This document shows positions 9,198-37,655 of a stretch of DNA of 43,542 nucleotides, piece after piece. Origin of the DNA: Planctomycetia bacterium (lineage in GTDB: Bacteria > Planctomycetota > Planctomycetia > Pirellulales > UBA1268); contig JBKDUV010000188.1 of NCBI GenBank assembly GCA_046339335.1, positions 1-43,542 of the forward strand, given 5' to 3'. Under the pieces are notes generated by a model, which was given only the letters and a program-made list of their open reading frames with translations, was not told where the DNA came from and searched no databases. Position numbers and translations under genes: made by a program. Positions within the stretch are counted from its first letter, which is position 1, and every line of letters begins with the position of its first letter.

Positions 9198-11090
9198 TCA
9201 GTCCGCGATCCGCCGCAGCGCGACCTCGATCTCGCCGTCGTTGTCGGCCAGCCCCGTCCAGTCGTCGGCGCAGCGCAGGAACAGCTGCCCGTCAGCGGCG
9301 GCCACGAAGGTCTTCTCGGCACCCACGGCAAACGGCTCCTGGAGGACGAACTCCGCGTCCCGGAAGACGGCGGCCGTGAGCCGGCCGCGGCCCCCGTCGC
9401 CTCCGTCGGCCGTCACCGGTTCCCCGGCGGCGGCCGTCCGCCACGTGCCGGTCGCGGCCAGCGCGTACGTCGCCCCCCGCTCCACCCGCAGGCCGCTCCC
9501 CTGCCAGCCGGCCCGGGCCTTGATCGTGACGCCGACGCGGCCGGCACCGTCCTTGAGCGGCCGAAACCGGGCCTGCCACGGCCAGGCCGCGAGATCGGCC
9601 CGGTAGCCGTTGCCGACGGTCCGCAGAAACTGGTCGTACTCGAAGGAGATCTCGCGGGCCACGGGACCGTAGACCGACTCGAACGACACGCCGGGCCGCT
9701 CCTCCATCAGCGCGATCGCCAGGGGCCGGAAGCGGTCGTCGTAGTTGGGGTTGTTGGCGAGGAGATGGCACAGCGCCCAGCGCCAGGCGTAGTCCTGCCA
9801 CGTGCCGGCGGGCGTCTGCCCGGGGACGGCGATCTCCAAGAGCCCGCGCTTGGGATTCGCCCGCTGCAGATAGGCCATGACCGCCGGATGGATGTCGACG
9901 GCCTGCTCGCCGTCCTGCCAGTAGTTGGCCATCTCCGCAAATCCCTCCGCGAGCCACGTCGGCCCCGTCGAGCCGAACATCATGTGGCAAAAGCCGTGGG
10001 CGGATTCGTGCTGGATCACGCCATGGTCGGCGCACGAATAGAGCATCGCGCGGCGCTGGCCGCCGAGCCGGGAGTTGACACACACGCCAGCCCGCTCGCG
10101 GATCTTGGCGATCCCGGCGGGTTCGGCGATCGCGCCGGGAGGGAACGCGGAGAGGTCGTGCACGACGAAGCCCTCGACCACGCCGGCGGGCTTGCGGGCG
10201 AAATACCGTTCCAGGAGCCCCGCCATGCGTTCCAGCTTGTCGAGGATGATCTTCGCCTCACGGTCGGAGACGTCGCTGAGGAAGGCGAAGTGGGGGGAAC
10301 GGATGAGCCGCGGCTCGCGCTTCGGCTCATCCGCCAGGCCACGGTACTTGTTCTCGAGCTTCTCGTCGGGTCGTTCGCGGACCGCACCGCCGGCCGCCGA
10401 TTCGACGACGAGTTTCCGTGCCACGACGTCGCCGGTGTCGAGTCGGATCGCCTCCAGGCTCACGACTCTGGCACCGGGATCGATCCGCTTCGGATCGCTG
10501 CTTTCCAGTCGCGCGGTCGCCTCCTCCGCCACCTTGAAGGCGAAGGTCGTCTTGCGGGCGTAGGGGCGGTCCTCCGGCACCTGGACGACCAGTCGTCCCT
10601 TGCCGGCCTGCTTGATCGGTGCCACGACCATGCACCGGGCGAACTCGGCGGCAGTCGCCGGCTTCGCCGCCGGCGTGATGCCGATGGGGGCACCCGCCGC
10701 GTCGATGAGCGTGACCGCCGTCACCGCGCCGTCGGTCCGCCCCTGCCCGTTGATCAGGCCCTCGAACCGCACGACCTGTCCCGGCTTGAGCTGCGGGATG
10801 TCGAAGCCGCCGCTGATCCGCACCTCGGTCGTCATCCCCAGCAGCCGGCCGTCGGCCAGTTGCACGCCCTGCTCGTCCTTCCGCTGCAGCCGGAGATCGA
10901 GCATGTCTCCACGGTCGGTCCGCACGGTCAGGCGGCCGCTGGCAGCCGCCTCGACGATGCCGGCAGACTGGATCTGCTCGCGAACGGTCACCTGGCCGGC
11001 GGCTCCCGCAGCGAGCCCCACCGCGAGCAGCGGCACGAGGATGACTCGGAGGGCCCCCTGCGGTCCGCCGCCATGCCCGGAACGCGTCAT
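9198..11090 (-). CDS. secreted DUF1570-like putative zinc metallopeptidase (HExxH) with C-terminal beta-rich lectin-like domain
   Basis: In-frame ATG 11090 gives signal peptide MTRSGHGGGPQGALRVILVPLLAVGLAAGAAG. The motif VIQHESAHGF..GPTWLAEGFAEMANYW (HExxH plus downstream E) is present. The C-terminal ~130 aa is Gly/Ala/Thr/Trp-rich and beta-like. Confidence 0.75.
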   Translation of the reverse strand: MTRSGHGGGPQGALRVILVPLLAVGLAAGAAGQVTVREQIQSAGIVEAAASGRLTVRTDRGDMLDLRLQRKDEQGVQLADGRLLGMTTEVRISGGFDIPQLKPGQVVRFEGLINGQGRTDGAVTAVTLIDAAGAPIGITPAAKPATAAEFARCMVVAPIKQAGKGRLVVQVPEDRPYARKTTFAFKVAEEATARLESSDPKRIDPGARVVSLEAIRLDTGDVVARKLVVESAAGGAVRERPDEKLENKYRGLADEPKREPRLIRSPHFAFLSDVSDREAKIILDKLERMAGLLERYFARKPAGVVEGFVVHDLSAFPPGAIAEPAGIAKIRERAGVCVNSRLGGQRRAMLYSCADHGVIQHESAHGFCHMMFGSTGPTWLAEGFAEMANYWQDGEQAVDIHPAVMAYLQRANPKRGLLEIAVPGQTPAGTWQDYAWRWALCHLLANNPNYDDRFRPLAIALMEERPGVSFESVYGPVAREISFEYDQFLRTVGNGYRADLAAWPWQARFRPLKDGAGRVGVTIKARAGWQGSGLRVERGATYALAATGTWRTAAAGEPVTADGGDGGRGRLTAAVFRDAEFVLQEPFAVGAEKTFVAAADGQLFLRCADDWTGLADNDGEIEVALRRIAD

Positions 11091-11181
11091 CGCCAGTCCC
11101 TCGGTATCATGCCTGTCGCATCCCACCGTCACTTTTGATGCTACGCGATTCTCCCGGCCCGAGCCAGCGGCAGCCCGCGTC

Positions 11182-11649
11182 ATGAACCACTGGTTGATCA
11201 AGAGCGAGCCCGACGTGTTCTCGATCCAGGACCTCGCCCGGGCCCGCGGCCGGACGACGGGCTGGGAAGGCGTCCGCAACTACCAGGCCCGCAACCTGCT
11301 GCGCAGCATGCAGAAGGGCGATCTGGCGATCTTCTACCACTCGAACGCCGCACCGCCCGCCGCGGTCGGCATCGTCACGGTGGTGCGCGAGGCCTATCCC
11401 GATAAGAGCGCCTGGGATCCGGGGAGCGACTATCACGACCCCAAGGCGCGACCCGACAACCCAGTCTGGTCGATGGTGGACGTGAAACTCGTCGAGATCT
11501 TTCCGCGGCCGCTGCCTCTCGACGAGTTGCGCGGCACGCCGGCGCTCGAGGGCATGGAGCTTCTCCGACGCGGCAGCCGGCTCTCCGTGCAGCCGGTCAC
11601 GGCCGCCGAGTTCCGCACCCTCCAGCGGCTCGCCGCCCGCAAGGCCTGA
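11182..11649 (+). CDS. EVE (PUA-like) domain protein
   Basis: MNHWLIKSEPDVFSIQDL..WEGVRNYQARNLLRSMQKGDLAIFYHSN.. is the classic EVE/DUF55 signature. In-frame ATG within ORF 10600..11649. Confidence 0.85.
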   Translation: MNHWLIKSEPDVFSIQDLARARGRTTGWEGVRNYQARNLLRSMQKGDLAIFYHSNAAPPAAVGIVTVVREAYPDKSAWDPGSDYHDPKARPDNPVWSMVDVKLVEIFPRPLPLDELRGTPALEGMELLRRGSRLSVQPVTAAEFRTLQRLAARKA

Positions 11650-17282: not shown

Positions 17283-20200
17283 TCAGCGGGGCGGAAACGC
17301 GAACGGTGGCTGAGTGCCTGAAGTCGGCTGCGGCGGGAGCGCCGGTGCCTGGGGCAGTTGCGGTCCAGACCCTGCAGGCGGGTTGCCGAAGAGCGTCTCC
17401 AGCGAATCCAGACCGCGAGTCAGGCCCTCGCCGATCACCGCCTGCGCCGTGTTTTCCACGATCCGGCCCAGCACCACGTCGATTGATCCGGCGTCGAACT
17501 GCGGCCGATCGATCGTCCCCTTGAGCGGGATCGCCAGCGGCGTGCGTAAGAGCCGGGCGATCACCGGCGTCTGCCCGGCGATCTCCGCCCGCAGCGCCAC
17601 TTCGACCACCATCGCCAGGCTCCCGTCTTCCCCGACGCTCCCCCGGCTGCGGACGGTCAGGTCGCCCATGTCCATCACCAGCCCGTCGTGCCAGAGGCGG
17701 CGGTTCACGATCCTGACGCCGACCGGCTCGGGCCGCACGCGGAGCAGCACCGTCTTGTCCCCCACCGCGAACCGCGGGTCGATCGCCGCCCGCAGCTTGA
17801 CGAGCAGGTTCGCCAGCGGGCCGAGGGTCGCCGTCGGCGTCACCTCCAGCTCGTCGAAGACGACCTGCGCGGCCAGTTCGCCCGCGAACGGGTCGGCCAG
17901 CGGCAGGCGGGCACCCGCCATGTCGATGCTGGCGATGCCACGGGTGTGGGTGGCGTGCCCGAGGAGTGGTGAGAGCCAGGTCGTGAACCGGCCGCAGAGC
18001 GGCCCGGCAAGGGTCACGCGGTCAATCACCCGGCCGGCCGGCACGACGACCTCGGCGGCTTCCGGGCCGAGCCGCAGCCACGGCGCGCCGCGGAGCCGCC
18101 CGCCGGAGGCGGCGACGTCGAAGGGACCGAGGGACAGCTGGCCTTCGACGAGTCGGATGGCGACTTCTCCGGCGGCCAGCGTGAAGCCGCCGATGTCGGC
18201 ACCGCTCCAGGCGGTCGACGTGTCGAGCACCATGCCGCGCAGCCGATCCGCGCCGCTTGGACGCCGCATCGTCTTCACCGGCTGAACCACCCGCGCAACG
18301 GCATCCACCGGCCCGCCGTGGCCGCGGACGCCGGACAGCCAGTCCGCGGGCAGCGGGATCTGGTCGCCGTCCGGGTCCGGATCGCCGGCGGCAGGCGCCG
18401 GCGGCACGCCGAGCGGCAGCCGCAGGGCGAATGGTCGATTGCCTGCGCCTTCGATCCGCACCGTGCCGCCGGTCCAGGGGGCGATGAGACCGCTGATCCG
18501 ACCCCAGTCGTAGCCGGCACTGCCATCGATCGCGACCAGCCGCCGGCCGGACGAGGCCTCCACGCTTCCCCGCGCGGCGATGGCCAAGGTCGACGATTCG
18601 ACGGCGATGCGGTCGATCTGCATTCGGTCGGCGAGGGCACCGCTCGGTTCGCGTTGTCGGGAGACCTCGACCAGGACGCGGCCGCGCGGCTCGCTCCACA
18701 CCGGCTGCGGCGGCGCCGGCTCCCGGCCCGATAGCGGGCCGGCCGCCTTCGCGAGCACGAGCTGCGTCGCCGTCGCGTCGATGAGCAGGTTCGCGCCCGT
18801 GGCCCCATCGGCGAGCTCGACCATGCCGGCGACGTCGCCGCTCGGCTGCCAGCCCGGAGCGGTCCCTGCCGTCCCAACCCAGGCAGTGAGCCTGCCAAGA
18901 TGGACGCGGTACTGCACTTTGCCGCGGCACACGTCGAACAGATCGAACCGGCCCGCGTCGGCCGATCCGCGCGGCGCGGCCAGCGACAGGCCGCCGGTTC
19001 GCAGCGATACCGTGGTGGACAAGATCTCGCCGGCCGCGACGTCGAAACGGTTGGCACGCGGATGGTAGAAGCCGGCGGCACTGGCGGCGACCCGCGGCTC
19101 ACGGATGGTCGCCGCCCCCGCCCGCACGTTCAACTTCTCGAGTTCACAGGTGGCCCGCGTCACCTGCCAGGCCTCGCCGCGGGCCACAAGGCTCGCCGCC
19201 GACGCGATGCTGCCCGCCAGTTCGACTCCCTGCGCGGCGGCCGCGGGCAGCAGACCCGCGAACCGGGCGTGCCAGCGGGCGAGTTCGCCGTCGAGCCCGC
19301 ACTCGACGGTCACCGGCTCGGTGCCCGCCACGGCGCGGACCCATGGCCCGCGGGATTCGCCGCCGACCAGTCCGTCGAGCCCCACGATCAGGCCGCCGTC
19401 GAGCCGCGCGTGAAGGCGGTCGCGGTCCGCACTGACGTGCAGCCGGGCGTCGTTGACGACCGCCTCCGCACCCGTCAGCCGGACCGTTCCCTCGGCCTGG
19501 AGCGTGAGTTCCTCATCCCGCCAGAGCGGCCGACCGGGCAGGGCCACCTCCAGGGCCGACGCGACGCCCTGTGCCTTGACCAGCGCATCCGCCTGCCGGT
19601 CCGCGCGGCTCACCGTCACGCGGCCGCTCGACGTGCCGGCCAGCCGCGCCCCGCGCAGGTCGAGGAGCTCGGACGCCTCCGCCAGGAGTTTGTCGAAATC
19701 GAACGTCCAGGAGAGCGTCGCTGCCTGCGCATCACCGGCCAGCGAGACCTCGACGGCCCGCGACGAAAGCCTGGCATCCTCGATCCGCAGGCGAGCGCCG
19801 GCAGCCGGACCCCGGCGGCCGCGAATCCAGCCGCTGAAGGGCTCGTGCCAGCGCAGCGTGCGGTCGCTGACCGTGCCGGCCCGGGCCGCACCAGCGGCCG
19901 TGCCCACGACGCTCTGCACCGCGGCGAGATCACGGCTCGTGAGACGAAGTTCGAGGACGCGATCGTCGCCATCCGATCGGGACGTCGCCGCGAGGTGCAG
20001 CTGGCCATCGGTGACGCGGACGTCGGGCCTGACGGCCAGGCCGCCGGCCACCGCCCGCGACAGGGCGGCGAGATCGACGGCGGCCGCGACCGCGAAATCT
20101 TCTTCGACGAGGGCTTCGGCCCAGTCCCACGAGCCCGCGAGGGGCAGTCGAATCCGCCCCGACGCCTCGGCGCGAAACAGGGGCGAACTGACGGCGAGCG

Positions 20201-21290
20201 TCCGGACGACGAGGCGGTCGCCGACCAGGGAGCAGTCGATGGGGACGTCGCAGGTCTCGATGGTCGCCAGCGCCGCGTTCGTGGCCGCGTCACGGGCCGT
20301 CAGCGGCGCGACGGCGAGCGAGCCGACGATCCGGGTCTCGAGGTCGCCCGCCGCGATGTCGCAACGGATGTCGGCCAGGCCGTCGAGGCGGTGGGAAAGT
20401 CCGAACCTCGTCGCCAGCACTCCCGACCCGCCGAGCGGCAGCCGGTGGGCGGCGATCGCGATCCGCTGGCCGTTGTCGACGCCGGCCGGTGCGGCGACCG
20501 AAAAGCCTCCGGCACTGGCCAGCACCGCCGTGGCACCGGCGGCGACCGTGCCGCGGTCCCGCCGAGGCGCCTCGGCCTCGACCGCCGGTGACGGCCAATC
20601 GACCGCCGGTGACGCCGCGGCGGCCGCGGGTGCCGACGTGGCTACGGTGCCAGCGACCGGATTCGGCTCGGCGGCGGCCCGCACGAGCCGCCCCGCCACC
20701 GTCCAGCCCGCGCGGACCGCGGCGGCATCGCATCGTCCCGTCGCCGTCAGCCCCGCGATTCGCCAGACATCACCGCGCACGGTGTCGCGAACCTCGACCA
20801 TGCCATCGACGATTTCGAGTTCGCAGGCGGGCGTCGGCGCCGCCCCGGCCGGGGCCGGGGCCAGCCACGGCGCCAGGATGTCCTCGAGAGAACTGCCGCC
20901 GGCACGGACGTCCACGACCATCTCCGGGCCGATCAGCCGCACCGTTCCCAGATCGGCCGGATCGGCCGCCAGGGCGAGCAGGCCGCGGTCGACGACGAGC
21001 CGGGGCACGATCGCCGCCGCCCGGCCTTCCCGGTCGCGGAGCACGACGTCTCGATATTCGACACCCCCGAGCCAGCGCCACTGCGCCGCGCCGCTCGACA
21101 CGCTCCCGTTGATGCCAGCCAATGCCGCGACCAGCGGACGATCCCGGAGATCGGTGAGCACGGCGATCGTCGGAGCCACGCCGATCGCCGCGGCGGCCAC
21201 GACCAGCGCCGCCAGCGAGAACACCGCCCAGCGGCGCGGCCGCCGGCGGCCCGAACCGGCGTCCTCGAGTCGGGAACGTCTCCTCGTCAT
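17283..21290 (-). CDS. giant N-terminally anchored AsmA/TamB-like protein
   Basis: 1335 aa. N-terminal Arg-rich stretch plus TM segment WAVFSLAALVVAAAAIGVA. Long Ala/Gly/Val/Arg/Asp beta-rich body. The C-terminus ..DGLVMDMGDLTVRSRGSVGEDGSLAMVVEV..PLKGTIDRPQFD resembles AsmA/TamB C-terminal regions. The family call is tentative. Confidence 0.7.
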   Translation of the reverse strand: MTRRRSRLEDAGSGRRRPRRWAVFSLAALVVAAAAIGVAPTIAVLTDLRDRPLVAALAGINGSVSSGAAQWRWLGGVEYRDVVLRDREGRAAAIVPRLVVDRGLLALAADPADLGTVRLIGPEMVVDVRAGGSSLEDILAPWLAPAPAGAAPTPACELEIVDGMVEVRDTVRGDVWRIAGLTATGRCDAAAVRAGWTVAGRLVRAAAEPNPVAGTVATSAPAAAAASPAVDWPSPAVEAEAPRRDRGTVAAGATAVLASAGGFSVAAPAGVDNGQRIAIAAHRLPLGGSGVLATRFGLSHRLDGLADIRCDIAAGDLETRIVGSLAVAPLTARDAATNAALATIETCDVPIDCSLVGDRLVVRTLAVSSPLFRAEASGRIRLPLAGSWDWAEALVEEDFAVAAAVDLAALSRAVAGGLAVRPDVRVTDGQLHLAATSRSDGDDRVLELRLTSRDLAAVQSVVGTAAGAARAGTVSDRTLRWHEPFSGWIRGRRGPAAGARLRIEDARLSSRAVEVSLAGDAQAATLSWTFDFDKLLAEASELLDLRGARLAGTSSGRVTVSRADRQADALVKAQGVASALEVALPGRPLWRDEELTLQAEGTVRLTGAEAVVNDARLHVSADRDRLHARLDGGLIVGLDGLVGGESRGPWVRAVAGTEPVTVECGLDGELARWHARFAGLLPAAAAQGVELAGSIASAASLVARGEAWQVTRATCELEKLNVRAGAATIREPRVAASAAGFYHPRANRFDVAAGEILSTTVSLRTGGLSLAAPRGSADAGRFDLFDVCRGKVQYRVHLGRLTAWVGTAGTAPGWQPSGDVAGMVELADGATGANLLIDATATQLVLAKAAGPLSGREPAPPQPVWSEPRGRVLVEVSRQREPSGALADRMQIDRIAVESSTLAIAARGSVEASSGRRLVAIDGSAGYDWGRISGLIAPWTGGTVRIEGAGNRPFALRLPLGVPPAPAAGDPDPDGDQIPLPADWLSGVRGHGGPVDAVARVVQPVKTMRRPSGADRLRGMVLDTSTAWSGADIGGFTLAAGEVAIRLVEGQLSLGPFDVAASGGRLRGAPWLRLGPEAAEVVVPAGRVIDRVTLAGPLCGRFTTWLSPLLGHATHTRGIASIDMAGARLPLADPFAGELAAQVVFDELEVTPTATLGPLANLLVKLRAAIDPRFAVGDKTVLLRVRPEPVGVRIVNRRLWHDGLVMDMGDLTVRSRGSVGEDGSLAMVVEVALRAEIAGQTPVIARLLRTPLAIPLKGTIDRPQFDAGSIDVVLGRIVENTAQAVIGEGLTRGLDSLETLFGNPPAGSGPQLPQAPALPPQPTSGTQPPFAFPPR

Positions 21291-29812: not shown

Positions 29813-30106
29813 GGCTCGCGCGGAAAACGGTTGGGGAAAGCGGGGGTTTGATTCACAATGCGGTTCGACGCGCTGCTGGGCTCCGTCGCCCCTGGAAGCG
29901 GCGGACAACCACGCGGTTTTGCCTTGGCAGCGGGGACGGGCTGGCCTCTTCCGTTATCAATTTTCGGACCGGCCCGCCTCAACACTCGGCCATGCGACGG
30001 GACGGAGGCATACCCCGCCTTCTGTGGGCCCAAAGCCGTGCAGCGTTCCGCGGTTCGGGCCGGCGGCGATCCGTCGATCCTACCCGGCGTGCCACCGGGA
30101 TGCTGC

Positions 30107-30429
30107 ATGCCCGACTTTCGCCGCTGGGCGGCCTGCGCCATCGTGGCCGCACTGATCGGCTGGAGCATCGGGGGCGGTGCGGCCGCGACTGTGGTCGCGG
30201 GCTGCTCAGCTCGCCGCGGTCAAGGCGGAGAGCGAGCGGCAGTTCGAGGAGCTCATCCGTCGCCGGCTCGCGATGCCGATCGAGCAGCCGATGAATTTCC
30301 TGCGCAGGCGTCTTCCCGGTGGCGGCAGCTGTCTCTGCGCGGCCCGCCCCGCGGGCGGCCGGGCCGCTCGGCTTCGAGGCGCTGGGAAACCGTGTGCATG
30401 GCCGCGTCAGCGAGGCGTTCCGCGCCTGA
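30107..30429 (+). pseudogene. uncertain small gene whose coding signal jumps between three frames (possible frameshifted remnant)
   Basis: Frame 1, from ATG 30107: MPDFRRWAACAIVAALIGWSIGGGAAATVVAG, high GC3, then GC3 collapses near 30205. Frame 2: AQLAAVKAESERQFEELIRRRLAMPIEQPMNFL, high GC3. Frame 3, after about 30295: ..AAGPLGFEALGNRVHGRVSEAFRA, stop 30427-30429, high GC3. Confidence 0.3.
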
Positions 30430-30435
30430 CGGCGT

Positions 30436-31383
30436 TCACTGCTGCTGCTGCTCGCCGTCGGCCTCGTAGTGCACGGCGTGGATGACCGTGTGCACCGGGG
30501 CGTCGCGCGGCGCGAGGGCCGCGTGCCAGTCGAGCGACGGCAGCCGGTCGAGTGTCCGGGTCGCGACGCGGACCTCGATCTGCTCGGCGCCCGAGCCGAC
30601 GTAGGTGCCCTTGTTCGGCGGCACGTCGCTGAAGTCGCGGCCGACCGCCGTCTTCACGAACCCGCCGCCGATCGGGCAGCCGTTGGTGGGATCGAAGCCC
30701 GACCAGCCGATGTCCGGCAGCCAGACCTCGCACCAGGCGTGGCTCTGCGACTCCCGGTTGGGGCGGTGAATGTAGCCGCTGACGTAGCGGGCCGGCACGC
30801 CCCACGACCTGAGGATGGCGATCATGAGATGGGTGAAGTCCTGACAGACCCCCTTGCCGTGCGTGAGGATGTGGTCGATCGGCGACGAGGCGTCGGTCAC
30901 GTCGCGGGCATACTCGAACTGGCTGCGGATGTGCTCGGCCACCTGGCAGACCCAGATCCCGACCCGCGTCCGCGGCCGCGGCGCGACGGCGATGCGGACC
31001 GGCTCGAGCAGCGGCGTCCGCCGCACCGGCCCGCGCAGGGCGAGGGAGTCGAGCGTCTCCAGCGGCAGCTGCCACTCCAGCGGGCCCGACTCGGGAAACT
31101 CGGCCTGGCTGGCGACGGGCCCGATCGCGGAGTCCTCCGTCTCGACGACGCTCGCGGCGAGGATTCGCACCCGTGGCGGCGGGGCGAGGAGATTGAAATG
31201 GTGGACGACGTTGCCGAAGCCATCCCGATAGGTGGCCAGGGGATGCGCCAGGCCGGTCGAGATCCGGAACGAATGGCAGCGCTGACCGTGGTCACTGGCC
31301 GGCTCCATGCGCAGCTCGCAAAGCCACTCGCGGACCGGCTGGGCGTAGGAGAACGTCGTCTCGTGCTGGATCTCGAGGATCAT
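30436..31383 (-). CDS. transglutaminase-fold protein (Bact_transglu_N plus transglutaminase core)
   Basis: In-frame ATG 31383: MILEIQHETTFSYAQPV.. Catalytic-type triad context GKGVCQDFTHL (Cys), SHAWCEVW (His), GFDPTNG (Asp). Ends EQQQQ, encoded by (CAG)4. Confidence 0.9.
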   Translation of the reverse strand: MILEIQHETTFSYAQPVREWLCELRMEPASDHGQRCHSFRISTGLAHPLATYRDGFGNVVHHFNLLAPPPRVRILAASVVETEDSAIGPVASQAEFPESGPLEWQLPLETLDSLALRGPVRRTPLLEPVRIAVAPRPRTRVGIWVCQVAEHIRSQFEYARDVTDASSPIDHILTHGKGVCQDFTHLMIAILRSWGVPARYVSGYIHRPNRESQSHAWCEVWLPDIGWSGFDPTNGCPIGGGFVKTAVGRDFSDVPPNKGTYVGSGAEQIEVRVATRTLDRLPSLDWHAALAPRDAPVHTVIHAVHYEADGEQQQQ

Positions 31384-31420
31384 GGGCGCGGCCTCCCGGG
31401 CCGTGGCACGGGCCTTGTGG

Positions 31421-32371
31421 TCATTGGAGCGAGTACTGCTGCTGGAGAAGCTGCGCGATCCGGGCGCAGCGGGCCTGGGCGTCGCCGAGGAAGGCATGCA
31501 GCTGCTCCCCCTCGAGCGTCGCGGCATCGAGGTAGGCGAGTTCTCCGTGGAGCCGGCCGACGACCCGCGAGACGTCGTCGTCGCAGCGGTCGGCAGAACG
31601 GCCGCTGATCGCCGCCAGCGAGTGCATCGCCCGGCCGAGGCAGAACCGCACCGAGTGCGGGAAGTCGGCGTTGGCGAGGAGGAACTCGATGACCCGCTCC
31701 GGCTCGACGCGGCTGATGTACAGCCGCTGATAAGCCTCGTAGGCGGCACAGTTCTTCAGCACCGCGCCCCACTGCAGGTTGCTGATCGGCAGGTCGACCG
31801 TGCCCGATCGCTCGAGGAGGGAAAACTTGGCGTCGAGGATCCGCAGCGTCTTGTCGGCCCGCTCCAGGTAGCGGCCAAGCTGGATGAAGTGCCAGCCCTC
31901 GTCGTGGACGAGCGTCGCCTCGCTGGCGCCGGTGAACAGGAGCACGCCCGTCTGCATCTCCTCACAGAAGTCGTGGGGTGAATCGGCGGCGCGAAACTGC
32001 TGGGCGGCCTCGCCGAGCCGCCAGTGGAGCTTGTTGAGCTCGCCCCACATCTGCGGGCTGATCGAGCCGCGGACGCTGCGGGCGTTGTTGCGGGCCCGGT
32101 TCATGCAGCCCATCACGCTGCCCGGGTTGGCGGTGTCGACGAGCAGCCAGCGCTGCACGGCCGCCACCGGGTGCTCGCCCGGGCGGACTGGCGGGGGGGG
32201 CTGCCGCAGCAGGGCCACGAGCGCGTTCCACTCCAGTTCTACGGGATTGGCGAGGACGCCGTGGAGGTCGAGGTCGAGCTGGAACGTGACGTTCACCGCC
32301 CGGGCGACGTGGTCGGCCCGCTCCAGGTACCGGCTCATCCAGAACAGTGCGTCGGCGACCCGGCTCAGCAT
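31421..32371 (-). CDS. alpha-E domain protein (COG2307)
   Basis: [28 protein letters not shown] is the canonical alpha-E N-terminus. The start overlaps the upstream ATP-grasp stop by 7 nt. Confidence 0.9.
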
Positions 32372-33861
32372 GCTCCGCTCCGCTGGAACCGTTCCTCGGC
32401 CAGGACCCAGGTGTCCTTGCTGCCGCCCCCCTGCGAGCTGTTGACGACGAGGCTCCCCTTGGGAAGGGCGACGCGGGTCAGGCCACCGGGCGTGACCACG
32501 GTCCGCTCGCCGCAGAGGATGAAGGGCCGCAGGTCGACGTGCCGCCCCTCCAGCCGCCCGTCGACGAGCGTCGGATGGGTGGAGAGCTGAATCGTCGGCT
32601 GGGCGATGAAGTCGCGCGGGTCGGCCTTGATGAGCTCCCGGAACTCGTCCCGCTGGGCCTGCGTCGACGCCGGCCCGATCAGCATGCCGTAGCCTCCGGA
32701 CTCGTTGACCCGCTTGACGACGAGCGACTGGAGGTTGGCGAGGACGTGGTCCCGCTCCGCGGGGATCTCAGGGCGGAAGGTCTCGACGTTCTCCAGGATC
32801 GGATCCTGGTCGAGGTAGTAGCGGATCATCGCCGGCACGAACGGATAGATGCCCTTGTCGTCGGCGATGCCGGTGCCGATGCAGTTGGCGAGAGCCACGG
32901 TGCCGGCCCGGGAGGCGTTCACCAGGCCCGGCACGCCGAGAGCGCTGTCGTGGCGGAAGGTGAGCGGGTCGAGGAAGTCGTCGTCGATCCGCCGGTAGAT
33001 GACGTCCACCTGACGCGGGCCGCGGGTCGTCCGCATGAAAACCCGGTTGTTGTCGATGAACAGGTCGCGGCCCTCGACCAGCTCGATCCCCATCCGCTGG
33101 GCGAGGAAACTGTGCTCGAAGTAGGCCGAGTTGTACATGCCCGGGCTGAGGAGGACGGCGGTCGGCTGGTTGGAGGTCGCCGGCGCGATGTACTGCAGCA
33201 CGTCGAGCAGGGCGGCGGGATAATCGTCGTTGGGGAGGACGTCGTAGTCGTTGAACAGGGCGGGGAAGACCCGCTTGAGCACCTTCCGGTTCTGGAGCAT
33301 GTAGCTCACGCCACTCGGCGTCCGGGCGTTGTCCTCGAGGACGAGGTACCGTCCGTCGGCGTCGCGGATCAGGTCGGTGCCGCAGATGTGGACGTAGATC
33401 CGTCGCGGCACCTCGACGCCGACGAACTCCCGCCGGAAGAACGTTCCCTGGAGGACGAGCCAGGGCGGCACGACGCCGTCGCGAAGGATCCGCTGATCGT
33501 GATACACGTCGTGGAGGAACAGGTTCAGGGCCGTGACCCGCTGCACGAGGCCGGCCTCGATCTGCCGCCACTCGTAGGACGGGATGATCCGTGGCACCGG
33601 ATCCATCGGCCAGACCCGCTCGATCCCCTCCTCGGCCCGGTAGACGGTGAAGCCGACGCCGTCCTGCCGCATCGAGAGGTCGGTCATCGCCTTGCGCCGC
33701 CGCATGTCCTCGGCGTCGAGGCCGCGGAGCCGGTCGTACAGCGGCCGGTAGTGATCCCGCGGACCGCCCCGATCGGCGATCATTTCGTCGTAGGCGCGGC
33801 CGACCTCGTAGCCGGCGAACGGCCCGGCGGCGGAGTCGACGGCGGTTGCTGAAATTGACAT
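32365..33861 (-). CDS. circularly permuted type-2 ATP-grasp protein (COG2308)
   Basis: In-frame ATG 33861 in ORF 32365..33930. [62 protein letters not shown] and [19 protein letters not shown]. Confidence 0.9.
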
Positions 33862-33893
33862 CGGAACGATTGACTGCGCGTAAACCGAGCAGG

Positions 33894-33916
33894 GACTGCC
33901 CCGCTGGCGGGCAGTC
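33894..33916. promoter_or_regulatory. palindrome in the divergent ATP-grasp / Anbu control region
   Basis: GACTGCCC CGCTGGC GGGCAGTC (8-bp arms, 7-nt spacer), 33 nt from the ATP-grasp start and 125 nt from the Anbu start. Confidence 0.3.
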
Positions 33917-34040
33917 TTGCCTTTTGTCACAACTATCCTGTGCGGTTTTTGCGAGTAGTCTGGAACGGCGGACTTGGCGGACTCGCCTTACAGCAATCCG
34001 CGCGCCGAACCGGTCCGTCCAGGATATCCGGAGACCAACG

Positions 34041-34814
34041 ATGACCTATTGCGTCGGCATCCGCACCCACGAGGGGCTTGTGCTCGCCTCCGACTCGCGG
34101 ACGAACTCGGGGATCGACCAGGTCTGCGTCTGCCGCAAGATGCACAACTTCGCGGTGCCGGGGGAGCGGATGTTCACGATCCTCTCCAGTGGCAGCCTGT
34201 CGGTCACGCAGTCGGTCATGACCCGGCTGCAGCACGAGTTTCAAACCGGCTCGGGGCTGGCCGACGTGGCCACGATGTACGAGGCGGCCCGCTGCGTCGG
34301 CCGGCACGTCCGCGAGGTGGCGGCGCTCGACCGTGACTACCTGGAGCGGGACAACGTCGGCTTCGCCATCAACCTGATCGTCGGCGGCCAGATCCGCGGC
34401 GAGCCGCCGCAGCTCTACATGATCTACGCCCAGGGCAATCCGCTCCGGGCGACGCGGGCCTCGCCGTTCCTGCAGATCGGCGAGACGAAGTATGGCCGGC
34501 CGATCCTCGACCGCGGCGTCCGCTACGGCGCGACGACCCTCGACCAGGCGGTGAAGTACGCGCTCATCTCGCTCGACTCGACGATGCGGTCGAACGTGGC
34601 CGTTGGTCCGCCGATCGACCTGCTCGTCTACGGCGCCGACGAATTCGCCGTCCGCCGCTACCGCCGGCTGGCGGCCGACGATCCGGACCTCGTGGAGATT
34701 CGCGGCTGCTGGGAGCGGGAACTCCGCCGTGCCATCGGCCAGGTGCCGACGCTCGCCTTCCCGACGCCGGGACGGCCGGACGAGTTTTTCACGGTTGTCA
34801 CGGCGGACGACTGA
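34041..34814 (+). CDS. Anbu (ancestral beta subunit) proteasome-type Ntn-hydrolase homologue
   Basis: In-frame ATG 34041 preceded by GGAG. MTYCVGIRTHEGLVLASDSRTN.. places Thr directly after the initiator Met, with no propeptide. The ~257-aa length and GETKYGRPILDR match the proteasome beta fold pattern. Confidence 0.85.
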   Translation: MTYCVGIRTHEGLVLASDSRTNSGIDQVCVCRKMHNFAVPGERMFTILSSGSLSVTQSVMTRLQHEFQTGSGLADVATMYEAARCVGRHVREVAALDRDYLERDNVGFAINLIVGGQIRGEPPQLYMIYAQGNPLRATRASPFLQIGETKYGRPILDRGVRYGATTLDQAVKYALISLDSTMRSNVAVGPPIDLLVYGADEFAVRRYRRLAADDPDLVEIRGCWERELRRAIGQVPTLAFPTPGRPDEFFTVVTADD

Positions 34815-34921
34815 CCGTCCCGGCCGGCTTGCGGCCCGTCTGTCGCCACACGTACACTTCGTCTGATTCGCGAGATCCCCGGCCGGCTCTGCTGGCCGGG
34901 CACCGACAGGAGGTGACCGCC

Positions 34922-36211
34922 ATGCCTCGTCCCATGCCGCGTCGCGCGTGCAGTCCGGTCCTCGCGGCCATCATGCTGCCACTCCTCTCCGCCCCGTTGT
35001 GGGCTGCGGACCCGCCCGGCGCGGCACGGCCGGGCCGACTGACCATGACCACCCTCGAGCGGCCGGCCGACGAGGAGATCGAGCCGCGCCGCACTCCGCG
35101 GCCCGTCCAGCGGGGACCGAAGAGGCAGCCGGCGGCGGCACGGGGGGCGGGACTCGCTCCAGCGGCCGATCGTGCAGCCGCACCGGCCCCGGCGACGAAG
35201 GCGCAGGCCATCGGCAGGGGTGTCCAGTACCTCATCGGCAGCCAGCGGAACGACGGCGGCTGGAACTCCGGCGAGCATCCGATGGCCGCCGACCTGTCGA
35301 ACACCAGCATTGCCGGCCTCGCGGTGCTCCGCGCGGGCACGGCTGTCGCTGTGCGCGGTGAGGAGGAAGCCATGGAGCGGGCCGTGCGATTCGTCAACGG
35401 ACGTGTCGCGGCGTCGGCCGACGCGGAACTCTGGGCGCCGCGTCCCGACGTCGTCGATGGGACGGTGCAGCGCGACCTCGGTGTCGGCGTCGATGCCGTG
35501 CTCGCGGCGCTGTTTCTCGCCGAGTCGATCGAAACCGCCGAAGCGGACCACCAGGCCGCCACCGCGAAGAAGTCGCTGGACACGCTGATGCGGGTGATCA
35601 CGCGCAACGTGCGCGAACAGCCCAACGCATTCGCGGCGGGCGGCCAGGCGCTGACCCGGGGGCTCATCGCCCACGCGGTGGACAGGGCCACCCGCGTCGG
35701 CGTGGAGGCGGACGACGATCTCGTGCCCCTGATCACCGCCAACGGTCCGAAGAACATGGGGCTGTACGGGGATGCCGGCCGGGTCGGATGCCTGCACGTT
35801 GCCTGGCGACGCAGCGGCGGCGGCAGCAGCCATGCGTTCGCCCAAATCGCCGACGAAGCCGCATCCGCAGCCCCGGTGGCGGCGGGCCCCGTGGGCACCG
35901 CCCGTGAGCTGGAAGCGCTCGGGAAATCGCTCGTGAAACCGGTGCTCGCCAACCCTCGCAACCAGTGGCCGTACGGCGCCGGGGGAGAGGTGTTTTTGGC
36001 GCTCATGTTCCTCACCGCCATGCTCCAGGACACGAATGCCGACGCGGCCGCCGCCTGGACGGCCAGGGTCGATGCGCAACTGATCCAGACGCAGAACGCC
36101 CAGGGGAGCTGGACCGGCTCGTCGTGCATCAACAGCCGTGTCTTCTGCACGTCGTCCGCCCTGCTCGTCATGGTGCCGACGCGGGACGGCGCGGCGGTCG
36201 CCGGCCGCTGA
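34922..36211 (+). CDS. secreted prenyltransferase/squalene-oxidase-repeat (alpha/alpha-toroid) protein
   Basis: AGGAGG lies before ATG 34922 (in frame in ORF 34829..36211). Signal peptide PVLAAIMLPLLSAPLWA. QW-like motifs VQYLIGSQRNDGGWNSGE and LIQTQNAQGSWTGSS. Confidence 0.7.
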   Translation: MPRPMPRRACSPVLAAIMLPLLSAPLWAADPPGAARPGRLTMTTLERPADEEIEPRRTPRPVQRGPKRQPAAARGAGLAPAADRAAAPAPATKAQAIGRGVQYLIGSQRNDGGWNSGEHPMAADLSNTSIAGLAVLRAGTAVAVRGEEEAMERAVRFVNGRVAASADAELWAPRPDVVDGTVQRDLGVGVDAVLAALFLAESIETAEADHQAATAKKSLDTLMRVITRNVREQPNAFAAGGQALTRGLIAHAVDRATRVGVEADDDLVPLITANGPKNMGLYGDAGRVGCLHVAWRRSGGGSSHAFAQIADEAASAAPVAAGPVGTARELEALGKSLVKPVLANPRNQWPYGAGGEVFLALMFLTAMLQDTNADAAAAWTARVDAQLIQTQNAQGSWTGSSCINSRVFCTSSALLVMVPTRDGAAVAGR

Positions 36212-36241: not shown

Positions 36242-37447
36242 GTGCACAGCATGGTCCTGGCCCACTGTCTTCGCCGGGTCGTGGTCGCCGCCACGTGCGT
36301 CGCCGCGGTCGCGTCCAGCGCGGCCGACCCCGTCGCCTGGCGCCGGGCCGCCGACCGCGGCAGCGCATTCCTCGCGGCGCGGCAATCGGCCGACGGCGGC
36401 TGGCGTTCGGACACGTATGGGAATTTTCGTGGTGGTGACGCGATCACGCCGCTGGTGCTCGTCGCCCTCGACACCGCCACGCACCCCGGGCCCCATGCAG
36501 CGGGCTGCCGGTTTCTTGCGGAACTCGCCGATGATGCGGAGCGGATCGATCGGCTCGAGTATCCGGTCTACACGGCGGCCTTCGCGGTGCAGGTCTGCCT
36601 GCGGGACGAGCCGTCTCGCCGGTCGGCCATCCGCTGGGCCGACGTGCTGCGCGGGCAGCAGCTCGCCGCCGGGCTTGGCTGGGCAGAGACCGATCCGGAG
36701 TTCGGTGGCTGGGGCTATGCCACGGTCGAGCCCCGGAAACCATCCCCCGGCGCAGTCCGGCTGCCGACCCTCGACCCGAACCTGTCGGCCACAACGCTCG
36801 CCGTCACGGCGCTCCGCGCCGGGGGCGCCCGCGCGGACGATCCGGCCCTCCGGGCAGCGCTGAGGTTTTTCGAGCGTTGCCAGAACTTTCCCCGGGCTGA
36901 CGCCGCCGCCGACCCGGCCTTCGATGACGGCGGTTTCTGCTTCGCCGTCGGCGTTGCCGATCGCTCGAAGGCCGGTAGCGCCGGCGTCGATCGGCATGGC
37001 CGGATGCGGATGCGTTCCTACGGCAGCGCCACGGCCGACGGCCTCCGGGCCCTGCTCGCCTGCGGACTGCCCGCGGATCATCCACGGGTGGTCGCCGCCC
37101 GCGCCTGGCTGGAGCGGCACTTTGCCGCCGACGTCCATCCGGGCGCGTTTCCGCAGGAGCGGGCCGTGTTTCGTGACGGCTGTTTCTATTACTGGTGCTG
37201 GTCGGCGGCGACGACGCTCGAGGCCCTCGGGGCCGATCGCCTGCCAGGCTCTGCCGGACCGCTCGACTGGCGGCGTGCGGTCGCGGACGCTCTCGTCACG
37301 CGGCAGGCCGACGACGGCAGTTGGCAGAGCGCCCACGGGGCCGTCCGCGAGGACGATCCGCTCGTGGCCACGCCGCTGGCCCTGGCGGCGCTGCGGACGT
37401 GCTCGAACCGAACGCCTCGCCAGAACACTGCGGCGCCGCTGCGGTGA
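36242..37447 (+). CDS. secreted prenyltransferase/squalene-oxidase-repeat (alpha/alpha-toroid) protein, paralogous type
   Basis: Signal-like LRRVVVAATCVAAVASSA. FLAARQSADGGWRSD, FGGWGY, DDGGFCF and LVTRQADDGSWQS. Start is GTG 36242 or ATG 36251. Confidence 0.75.
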   Translation: MHSMVLAHCLRRVVVAATCVAAVASSAADPVAWRRAADRGSAFLAARQSADGGWRSDTYGNFRGGDAITPLVLVALDTATHPGPHAAGCRFLAELADDAERIDRLEYPVYTAAFAVQVCLRDEPSRRSAIRWADVLRGQQLAAGLGWAETDPEFGGWGYATVEPRKPSPGAVRLPTLDPNLSATTLAVTALRAGGARADDPALRAALRFFERCQNFPRADAAADPAFDDGGFCFAVGVADRSKAGSAGVDRHGRMRMRSYGSATADGLRALLACGLPADHPRVVAARAWLERHFAADVHPGAFPQERAVFRDGCFYYWCWSAATTLEALGADRLPGSAGPLDWRRAVADALVTRQADDGSWQSAHGAVREDDPLVATPLALAALRTCSNRTPRQNTAAPLR

Positions 37448-37565: not shown

Positions 37566-37655
37566 GGAGAGGTGGCAGAGCGGTCGAATGCGCGTCTTTG
37601 CTAAAGACGTGTCCGGTCAAAAGCTGGACCGCGGGTTCGAATCCCGCCCTCTCCG
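37566..37655 (+). tRNA. tRNA-Ser(GCU): tRNA-Ser (anticodon GCU), class II with long variable arm; CCA not encoded
   Basis: Acceptor stem GGAGAGG/CCTCTCC. Anticodon stem CGTCT/AGACG with loop TTGCTAA. Variable arm GTCCGGTCAAAAGCTGGAC. T-arm GCGGG TTCGAAT CCCGC. It closely parallels E. coli tRNA-Ser(GCU). Confidence 0.95.

Follow-up and report, generated by a model that had tools for sequence, protein, structure and literature searches.

The Anbu gene set, in which a proteasome-like Ntn hydrolase accompanies an ATP-grasp amidoligase, an Alpha-E protein and a transglutaminase-fold enzyme, is among the few widespread proteasome-family systems without a known substrate or role, and variation in the wiring of its genes gives a clue to what it may do. 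A planctomycete contig of 43,542 nucleotides (nt) (JBKDUV010000188.1, here called the window, at its full length) carries the set with Anbu transcribed away from the other three genes, and raises the question of how the two halves are controlled and in which physiological setting. An initial annotation of the locus had held the tag, substrates and role of the set to be unresolved, in agreement with a 2021 review that still gives Anbu no function (PMC8665760). The protein families, their linkage, and promoter and dyad elements of conserved sequence and geometry are all present at the locus and in its relatives, and the overall reading adopted here as likely is that the set comprises two transcription units, with the three-gene cassette placed on an NtrC-activated sigma-54 promoter and acting under nitrogen limitation. 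What is new lies in the anatomy of the spacer, where a conserved, predicted sigma-54 promoter is set against the Anbu start codon with putative enhancer dyads on its transcribed side. The four genes are as follows.

30436-31383, minus strand: transglutaminase-fold Cys enzyme, 315 amino acids, with a bacterial transglutaminase N-terminal domain
31421-32371, minus strand: Alpha-E protein (Pfam Alpha-E), 316 amino acids
32365-33861, minus strand: circularly permuted ATP-grasp amidoligase (Pfam CP_ATPgrasp_2/CP_ATPgrasp_1), 498 amino acids
34041-34814, plus strand: Anbu, a proteasome-like Ntn hydrolase of Anbu-1-like type, 257 amino acids, without a propeptide

Anatomy of the ATP-grasp/Anbu spacer

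The 179-nt spacer between the ATP-grasp and Anbu genes (33862-34040) was compared with its counterparts in a survey of 80 species-level genome loci, whose Anbu is 57-94% identical to the query and whose partner genes were located by tblastn; in 11 of these the upstream sequence is too short to judge, leaving 69 informative loci. An alignment of the relatives' spacers revealed three conserved elements, the first of which, just upstream of the Anbu ATG, reads WGCAA-N4-CGYGCCA on the plus strand. Since this is the reverse complement of the consensus TGGCACG-N4-TTGCW, it was read as a sigma-54-type element, and it points at the ATP-grasp gene, at a distance of 35 nt from the Anbu ATG in the window. 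The elements discussed below are, from the Anbu side inward:

33992-34007, minus strand: sigma-54-type -24/-12 element CGGCGCGCGGATTGCT, a pattern match, with GG at 34006-34005 and GC at 33994-33993
33956-33961, plus strand: hexamer TAGTCT (TAnnnT), candidate Anbu -10, reading TAGTCT or TAGGCT across relatives; a weak assignment
33897-33913, no strand: dyad site 1, TGCC-N9-GGCA, 17 base pairs (bp), the core of the palindrome and a proposed NtrC-type site
33875-33891, no strand: dyad site 2, TGCTCGGTTTACGCGCA on the minus strand, its centre 22 bp beyond that of site 1

From the position of the -24/-12 element, the ATP-grasp unit would be expected to have its minus-strand transcription start near 33981. 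All 33 divergent-layout loci examined contain an element that faces the ATP-grasp gene and scores 10 bits or more, and in 32 of them it is the best match, the background rate in all fetched DNA being 0.065 per 450 nt. In 28 of the 33 top matches, or in 29 when the second match of locus L012 is counted (10.4 bits at the usual place, the best match there lying 174 nt from the ATG), the -24 G and the Anbu ATG are separated by 12-52 nt, and a spacer alignment with a mean column identity of 40% shows no variation in the columns of the GG, the C and the TTGC. Where the cassette is co-directional with Anbu, in the Isosphaeraceae, the element is again found upstream of the ATP-grasp gene, scoring 11.1-12.2 bits in L041, L068 and L074 and a weaker 7.9 bits in L070. 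A plus-strand sigma-54 promoter serving Anbu was considered and discarded, the best plus-strand scores being mostly 3-7 bits with no conserved position.

The second component of the spacer is the palindrome GACTGCCC-N7-GGGCAGTC at 33894-33916. The initial annotation had pointed to a shared control region with an 8-bp-arm palindrome; both the spacer and the palindrome are real, and they are refined here to a predicted sigma-54 promoter and the proximal of two dyads. The centre of site 1 lies 88 bp downstream of the -12 GC in the window (86-88 bp when its three closest relatives are included), and most often 97-100 bp downstream in the divergent-layout loci (range 65-144). A dyad with at most one core mismatch is present at +65 to +144, mostly at +86 to +124, in 30 of the 33 divergent-layout loci examined, and most loci have a second dyad (consensus TGCCCGGTTTnCGCGCA) spaced exactly 22 bp beyond site 1, at approximately +119-122. 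In L041 (Tautonia sociabilis) and L074 (Tundrisphaera) the dyads are found on the other side, upstream of the promoter, 31 bp apart and with centres at -98 to -99 and -129 to -130 relative to the -12 GC. Taken in isolation, the single loose sigma-54 match and the single TGCC-N9-GGCA match in the 43.5 kilobases (kb) of the window are no more than chance alone would produce, and any significance of these candidate motifs in the window comes only from their conservation in relatives.

Three features of the dyads argue that they are protein-binding sites tied to the promoter and not RNA or coding features: their symmetry across relatives is limited to the outer four or five positions (TGCC..GGCA), their distance to the promoter is narrow while that to the ATP-grasp start varies, and in L041 and L074 they are placed upstream of the promoter. 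The dyads cannot represent an N-terminal extension of the ATP-grasp protein, as in-frame stops separate them from its start in L013, L016, L022 and L031; in four other loci the sites fall within the first 20 codons. Occurrences of TGCC-N9-GGCA inside the ATP-grasp coding sequences of several loci were set aside as a conserved coding motif. The palindrome is most likely an NtrC-type enhancer site for the sigma-54 promoter, an assignment drawn from its sequence and placement.

Predicted nitrogen-type control

The type of regulator is suggested by other promoters bearing the same signature. Metagenomes were scanned for the order dyad, 5-14 nt, dyad, 68-98 nt, TGGC-N7-TTGC, giving 104 usable matches, each followed by 250 nt or more of sequence. 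In 11 of the 104 the first gene behind the signature encodes PII (glnK), in 10 the ammonium transporter AmtB (amtB), and in 6 the urea-binding protein UrtA (urtA), with an ammonium transporter standing second, after PII, in six more; the dyad consensus at these promoters is TGCCCA-N5-TGGGCA. Because the same signature fronts the sigma-54 promoters of glnK, amtB and urtA, the dyad in the spacer is read as an NtrC-type enhancer. In line with this is the induction by nitrogen limitation described for Pseudomonas, where the P. putida Anbu operon PP_2685-2688 shows induction when nitrogen is limiting, an effect attributed to NtrB/NtrC (PMC7801951; PMC3235984, note added in proof). A related transglutaminase cluster of B. 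cenocepacia depends on sigma-54 and NtrC (PMC5491218), the sigma-54 regulons predicted for Proteobacteria show an enrichment of COG3484, and such regulons are predicted for Planctomycetia as well (PMC12316311).

The scan also returned genes of other kinds. The sigma-54 element with its two dyads stands before the gene of a MoxR-like AAA ATPase (PF07726, 4.4e-62) on five metagenome contigs (L096, L101, L103, L122 and L178), before that of a NifA-like activator on L197, and before that of a Lon protease on L126. In the uncultured 'delta proteobacterium' metagenome-assembled genome (MAG) of locus L032, an open reading frame (ORF) that adjoins a pair of Anbu and a shorter transglutaminase-like gene (TGase2) is preceded by a strong sigma-54 element (14.8 bits) whose dyads, at -117 and -147, are both perfect (L032:7301-7470, plus strand); this ORF has no Pfam match at E up to 1. 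Such extra sites in L032 and L065 were dropped as a clue to the regulon, since their downstream ORFs are without a Pfam match or uninformative. A further hint of a nitrogen link comes from one relative, in which the gene immediately after that of the transglutaminase and on its strand (L087:2425-4275, minus) encodes a glutaminase with STAS and cNMP-binding domains.

Gene layout across relatives

The window has the four families side by side, but with Anbu on the opposite strand upstream of the ATP-grasp gene, and so does not form a single co-directional operon. The arrangements found in the 69 informative loci are listed here, with TGase2 denoting the shorter transglutaminase-like gene.

24 of 69 loci: transglutaminase, Alpha-E and ATP-grasp on one strand, Anbu divergent and adjacent (the exact layout of the window)
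6 of 69 loci: the window layout with TGase2 between ATP-grasp and Anbu
5 of 69 loci: contiguous, co-directional four-gene operon
5 of 69 loci: co-directional cassette separated from Anbu by a convergent TGase2
1 of 69 loci: Anbu first, ahead of the cassette
18 of 69 loci: TGase2 alone beside Anbu, divergent
3 of 69 loci: TGase2 alone beside Anbu, co-directional
7 of 69 loci: no partner gene detected

The 24 divergent three-plus-one loci come from different species, with Anbu identities of 60-94%, Anbu/ATP-grasp spacers of about 140-410 nt, and differing flanking genes; metagenome contigs of two relatives, with independent gene calls, display the same layout amid yet other flanking genes. In a further 29 of the 69 loci Anbu is divergent from another transglutaminase-like gene. 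The conserved linkage of the four genes, without which the initial annotation would have counted its case as refuted, holds in 24 relatives with changing flanks. Its emphasis on the split, divergent layout as a distinguishing trait did not fare as well: the layout is real, but it is standard in Planctomycetia/Pirellulales relatives and not peculiar to the window, being shared by those 24 loci where only five have the co-directional operon. That Anbu sometimes lies outside the operon of the other three genes was already recorded by Valas and Bourne (PMC3235984). The gene set is already known, and its lineage-typical, predicted regulatory layout is modestly interesting.

TGase2 may be the most constant neighbour of the Anbu subfamily to which the window's protein belongs. 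In L032 it is divergent directly upstream of Anbu (L032:8958-9944, minus strand; PF01841 at 1.9e-21), with equivalents in L034, L040, L043, L044, L051, L052, L055, L064, L067, L072, L076, L078, L079, L081, L082, L085 and L086. The TGase2-Anbu pairing is seen in many Acidobacteriota, Methylomirabilota/Rokubacteria, Tepidisphaerales and other genomes, often with no three-gene cassette nearby. Two MAGs labelled 'uncultured Chitinophagaceae' (L008 and L024) have the layout of the window and an Anbu 72-91% identical to it, and their labels look wrong.

Proposed model and its alternatives

In the proposed model, the ATP-grasp, Alpha-E and transglutaminase genes would form one operon, transcribed from the sigma-54 promoter at 34007-33992 (minus strand) that lies inside the Anbu 5' region. 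An NtrC-type enhancer-binding protein, occupying the dyads at 33897-33913 and 33875-33891 in the leader, some 90-110 bp downstream, would activate the cassette, and Anbu would constitute a second unit running in the opposite direction from its own promoter. Nitrogen limitation would be the most likely physiological setting, with the ligase cassette induced. The ligase, together with Alpha-E, may then make or modify peptides through ATP-dependent amide bonds, the Cys enzyme may transfer or cleave the amide-linked products, and Anbu may hydrolyse the resulting peptides. Every one of these biochemical steps is conjecture, the support gathered here falling on the regulatory half of the model. Published biochemistry includes the finding that the Yersinia operon's ATP-grasp protein releases phosphate from ATP (PMC6376114) and binding of proteasome inhibitors by Pa-Anbu, whose authors favour a protease role (PMC5666114).

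Several considerations weigh against this reading. The weight matrix used for sigma-54 elements was built from the consensus sequence and not from a curated set, the window's own element is among the weaker copies (10.1 bits, with C at -26 and G at -22), and two core positions of its dyad site 2 are mismatched. It is uncommon for the enhancer of a sigma-54 promoter to lie downstream, and the Anbu promoter could be what the dyads regulate, in place of the cassette promoter or in addition to it; a scan of 30200-35000 for a promoter of the sigma-70 consensus gave no match. No rpoN or NtrC-like gene occurs in the 43.5-kb window, and their presence in the host genome is assumed from literature on the class, while the predicted sigma-54/NtrC dependence of the cassette has its support at the level of sequence. 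As for the biochemistry, no peptidase activity was obtained for several Anbu proteins and no stable complex formed among the operon proteins (PMC6376114), and it is these published attempts that leave the biochemical part of the model conjectural.

The position of the Anbu promoter has consequences for the way the two units meet. With the -24 only 12-52 nt from the Anbu ATG, this promoter must overlap the sigma-54 promoter or lie to its left, so that the two units would start head-on with overlapping 5' ends. In the L011-L022 subgroup a TTGACG stands 16 nt before the hexamer at the candidate -10, and is absent from the window; TTGACG-N16-TAGTCT was rejected as the Anbu promoter because this spacing is lost in the window's subgroup. 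The TAGTCT block could alternatively be a DNA-bending site between the sigma-54 promoter and the dyads. Head-on interference between the cassette and Anbu units might follow from such a geometry, and a tentative extension of the model, possible though on the doubtful side, is that transcription from the overlapping promoters causes the units to interfere or to be differently timed. If true, the ligase and transglutaminase would be on in nitrogen starvation and Anbu, for example, before or after it, so that Anbu would act in another phase than the tagging enzymes and not jointly with them.

A looser relation, in which Anbu functions in this lineage independently of the ligase cassette, with adjacency a relic and the cassette working alone as it does in Anbu-less genomes, is considered unlikely. 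It would accommodate the predicted location of Anbu on a separate transcription unit, the 28 of 69 informative loci without the three-gene cassette within 10 kb, the failure of the Yersinia Anbu and operon proteins to give a stable complex (PMC6376114), and the far smaller rise of P. putida PP_2685 than of PP_2686-2688 under nitrogen limitation (PMC7801951, table), but it is harder to reconcile with a three-plus-one adjacency that 24 species-level genomes keep, at a spacer length of about 140-410 nt, as both flanks change. A sigma-54 promoter held within 12-52 nt of the Anbu start nearly throughout would, moreover, be hard to keep without selection on the pair, and most cassette-less loci still pair Anbu with a transglutaminase-like gene. 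A distinctly unlikely variant retains the regulator and reassigns its target, such that the dyads serve mainly a sigma-70-type promoter of Anbu and the sigma-54 element works without them or with other sites. The dyads do lie about 45-80 bp upstream of TAGTCT, a usual place for an activator or an NtrC-type repressor of sigma-70 promoters, and some NtrC proteins regulate promoters of this kind (PMC10274813); their distance to the sigma-54 element is nevertheless narrow (mostly 86-124 bp) where that to the ATP-grasp start is variable, the upstream dyads of the Isosphaeraceae have no Anbu gene adjoining them, and control of Anbu and of the sigma-54 promoter are not mutually exclusive.

The palindrome might, finally, act as RNA, either as a stem-loop in the ATP-grasp leader (an attenuator or stability element) or as an intrinsic terminator on the plus strand, and this is regarded as very improbable. 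A terminator scan flags 33892-33918 with a T-rich tail on the plus strand, yet there is no upstream plus-strand gene for it to terminate and the T run is not conserved in relatives, for which reasons a terminator was rejected. In the fold of the 120-nt leader (-37.3 kcal/mol, z = -1.83) the palindrome forms a hairpin of 8 bp, but 10 of 200 shuffles match or better this value, and arm extensions outside the core differ between the window and L007 yet remain complementary. Across relatives, symmetry of the outer positions alone would give a weak stem with a loop of 7-9 nt, and no Rfam family matches in the spacer; together with the shuffle comparison, this led to rejection of a hairpin or riboswitch. 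Nor would an RNA element explain dyads that lie upstream of the promoter in Isosphaeraceae, and would hence not be transcribed, or that front the glnK, amtB and urtA promoters.

Identity of the four proteins

Profile searches against Pfam and matches to solved structures in the Protein Data Bank (PDB) bear out the four family assignments of the initial annotation, and the ORFs are confirmed at the coordinates listed above. The ATP-grasp protein matches CP_ATPgrasp_2 at 2.5e-164 and CP_ATPgrasp_1 at 2.7e-147 (PF14403/PF04174), with 547 bits against a cut-off of 32 and profile positions 1-374 of 374 covered, as well as PDB entry 3n6x at E 2.3e-165. An alternative GTG start at 33930 is also open and would yield 521 amino acids, and both starts are used by gene callers; that at 33861 is preferred because close relatives (L007-L009) have an ATG at the equivalent position. 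The Alpha-E protein (PF04168) scores 1.4e-87 and 294.5 bits over residues 1-313, covering profile positions 1-293 of 294, and its translation contains the YLER(A) motif twice, as RYLERAD and RYLERADK, representing the conserved ER motif; a PDB search found no solved homologue. Its gene overlaps that of the ATP-grasp protein by seven nucleotides (ATGCTGA), as previously proposed and as can be read directly from the minus strand (GCATGCTGA), where the stop TGA occupies 32367-32365 and the Alpha-E ATG 32371-32369.

The transglutaminase-fold enzyme (PF08379 and PF01841) matches Bact_transglu_N at 1e-18 (68.2 bits) and Transglut_core at 1.1e-23 (84 bits), both above the cut-off, and PDB entry 3isr, a 'putative cysteine protease', at E 1.5e-13. 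The GVCQDF, HAWCEV and FDPT contexts singled out earlier are all found in the translation of 30436-31383, and their Cys, His and Asp, which fall inside or at the edge of the core-domain match, would form a putative catalytic triad with roles taken from the family.

For Anbu, Pfam gives a weak assignment to Proteasome, a score that is no guide to the protein's identity. Comparison by phmmer with the solved structures 5loy, 5nyw, 5nyj, 5nyf and 5lox gives E values from 3.5e-70 to 1.5e-58, in alignments that span query residues 2-239 and chain residues 1-240 and include the C-terminal extension. The protein begins MTYCVG, its Thr immediately following the initiator Met and aligning from residue 1 of the mature PDB chains, which bears out the earlier claim that Thr becomes residue 1 with no propeptide. 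The catalytic set Thr1/Asp17/Lys32 is present, D18 and K33 (numbered from Met) aligning with the SDSRTN and RKMH segments of solved Anbu, and M1, T2, D18 and K33 are invariant in 25 relatives. Aligned to 5loy, a designed Anbu-1 consensus protein (PMC5666114), the S1 pocket consists of T20, C30, S48, L52 and T55, with Cys30 invariant in the clade and none of the Arg residues described for Anbu-2 in that alignment. The Anbu-1 pocket is amphiphilic (T20, F30, T48, L52, S55), that of Anbu-2 is basic, and the Anbu-2 type has been reported as typical of planctomycetes (PMC5666114); the pocket predicted here is Anbu-1-like with two substitutions and not of the basic Anbu-2 type. All four genes are real and correctly assigned, and the locus is an ordinary copy of the published Anbu gene set.

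Host and surroundings

An identical Anbu protein is found on contigs of several freshwater metagenomes, the closest genomes by Anbu are MAGs labelled Planctomycetia or Pirellulales, and the rest of the window carries planctomycete-specific PSD/PSCyt domains; the host is probably an uncultured freshwater Planctomycetia bacterium of the Pirellulales. Anbu is followed on its own strand, with no terminator-like site between, by two proteins (34829-36211 and 36242-37447, plus strand) that had been described as secreted alpha/alpha-toroid proteins. Their strand is as described and their N termini, judged by eye on the translations, are signal-peptide-like. The toroid assignment is weak: all squalene-cyclase (toroid repeat) matches of the first protein fall below the Pfam gathering score, and the second reaches 28.4 against 26.2 bits for SQHop_cyclase_N, with no significant stretch, and stays below the cut-off for SQHop_cyclase_C. 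Their adjacency to Anbu looks incidental, since tblastn against the 80 relatives gave no homologue of either (E < 1e-3) at 10 kb or less from Anbu, and a functional link was dropped on these grounds; genes after Anbu in relatives are unrelated and often convergent.

Elsewhere in the window, a tRNA-Ser (anticodon GCT) at 37566-37655 (plus strand) is identified by ARAGORN and Rfam (58 bits). Two coding-like ORFs on the minus strand, 17283-21290 (1335 amino acids, GC content at third codon positions (GC3) 0.87) and 9198-11279 (693 amino acids, GC3 0.89), match no Pfam family at E up to 0.001. Between 38000 and 42000 the GC content falls from about 0.70 to 0.64-0.66 in a region whose genes, for an ABC-2 permease, a Wzt-type ATPase, a methyltransferase and a glycosyltransferase, resemble a cluster for polysaccharide export. 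A 203-residue ORF at 29858-30469 (plus strand), called by some pipelines, has a 34-nt antisense overlap with the 3' end of the transglutaminase gene; with no Pfam match on record, it is probably spurious.

Significance and comparison with known systems

The survey indicates that much of the family does not transcribe Anbu together with the ligase cassette, that the cassette bears a nitrogen-type sigma-54/NtrC signature in a second phylum, and that one clade has the predicted enhancer downstream of the promoter and the two units head-on. These results neither reveal the biochemistry, which stays within the literature, nor make this window special.

The nearest known system is the proteobacterial Anbu operon (the P. 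aeruginosa PA1733 locus, P. putida PP_2685-2688, Yersinia bercovieri), which has the same four families, the same order of ATP-grasp, Alpha-E and transglutaminase, and an Anbu with Thr1/Asp17/Lys32, no propeptide and an Anbu-1-like S1 pocket; the sigma-54/NtrC control predicted here also fits the induction of the P. putida operon by nitrogen limitation. It differs in that Anbu of the window is on the opposite strand, as its own unit, with the NtrC-type dyads downstream of the promoter, and in the pocket, where residue 30 is Cys and not Phe and residue 48 is Ser and not Thr.

In regulatory architecture the spacer resembles enterobacterial promoters of the glnAp2 type, in which a sigma-54 promoter is preceded by two NtrC dyads about 110 and 140 bp upstream. 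Common to both are the -24 GG/-12 GC and two 17-bp dyads of the form TGC-N11-GCA, and the likeness extends to the Isosphaeraceae, whose dyads lie 98 and 129-130 bp upstream of the -12, and to the metagenomic signature before glnK, amtB and urtA. In the clade of the window, by contrast, the dyads are on the transcribed side and 22 bp apart, with the half-site TGCCC in place of TGCACC. Enhancers downstream of the start are known from the Caulobacter flagellar sigma-54 promoters flaN/flbG, where ftr elements serve divergent units; the likeness is one of architecture only, a downstream enhancer in a divergent gene pair, with a different regulator (FlbD), regulon and phylum.

The Pup-proteasome system of Actinobacteria (the PafA ligase, Dop and the 20S particle) shares with the Anbu set a gene for an ATP-dependent amide ligase beside one for a proteasome-family Thr hydrolase. 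The window set has no Pup-like tag gene and no AAA unfoldase, its ligase is a circularly permuted ATP-grasp enzyme and not of the glutamine-synthetase-like fold, and the literature describes Anbu as an open split ring (PMC8665760). The shared pairing of ligase and hydrolase genes is the reason why the Anbu set has been proposed to act in tagging.

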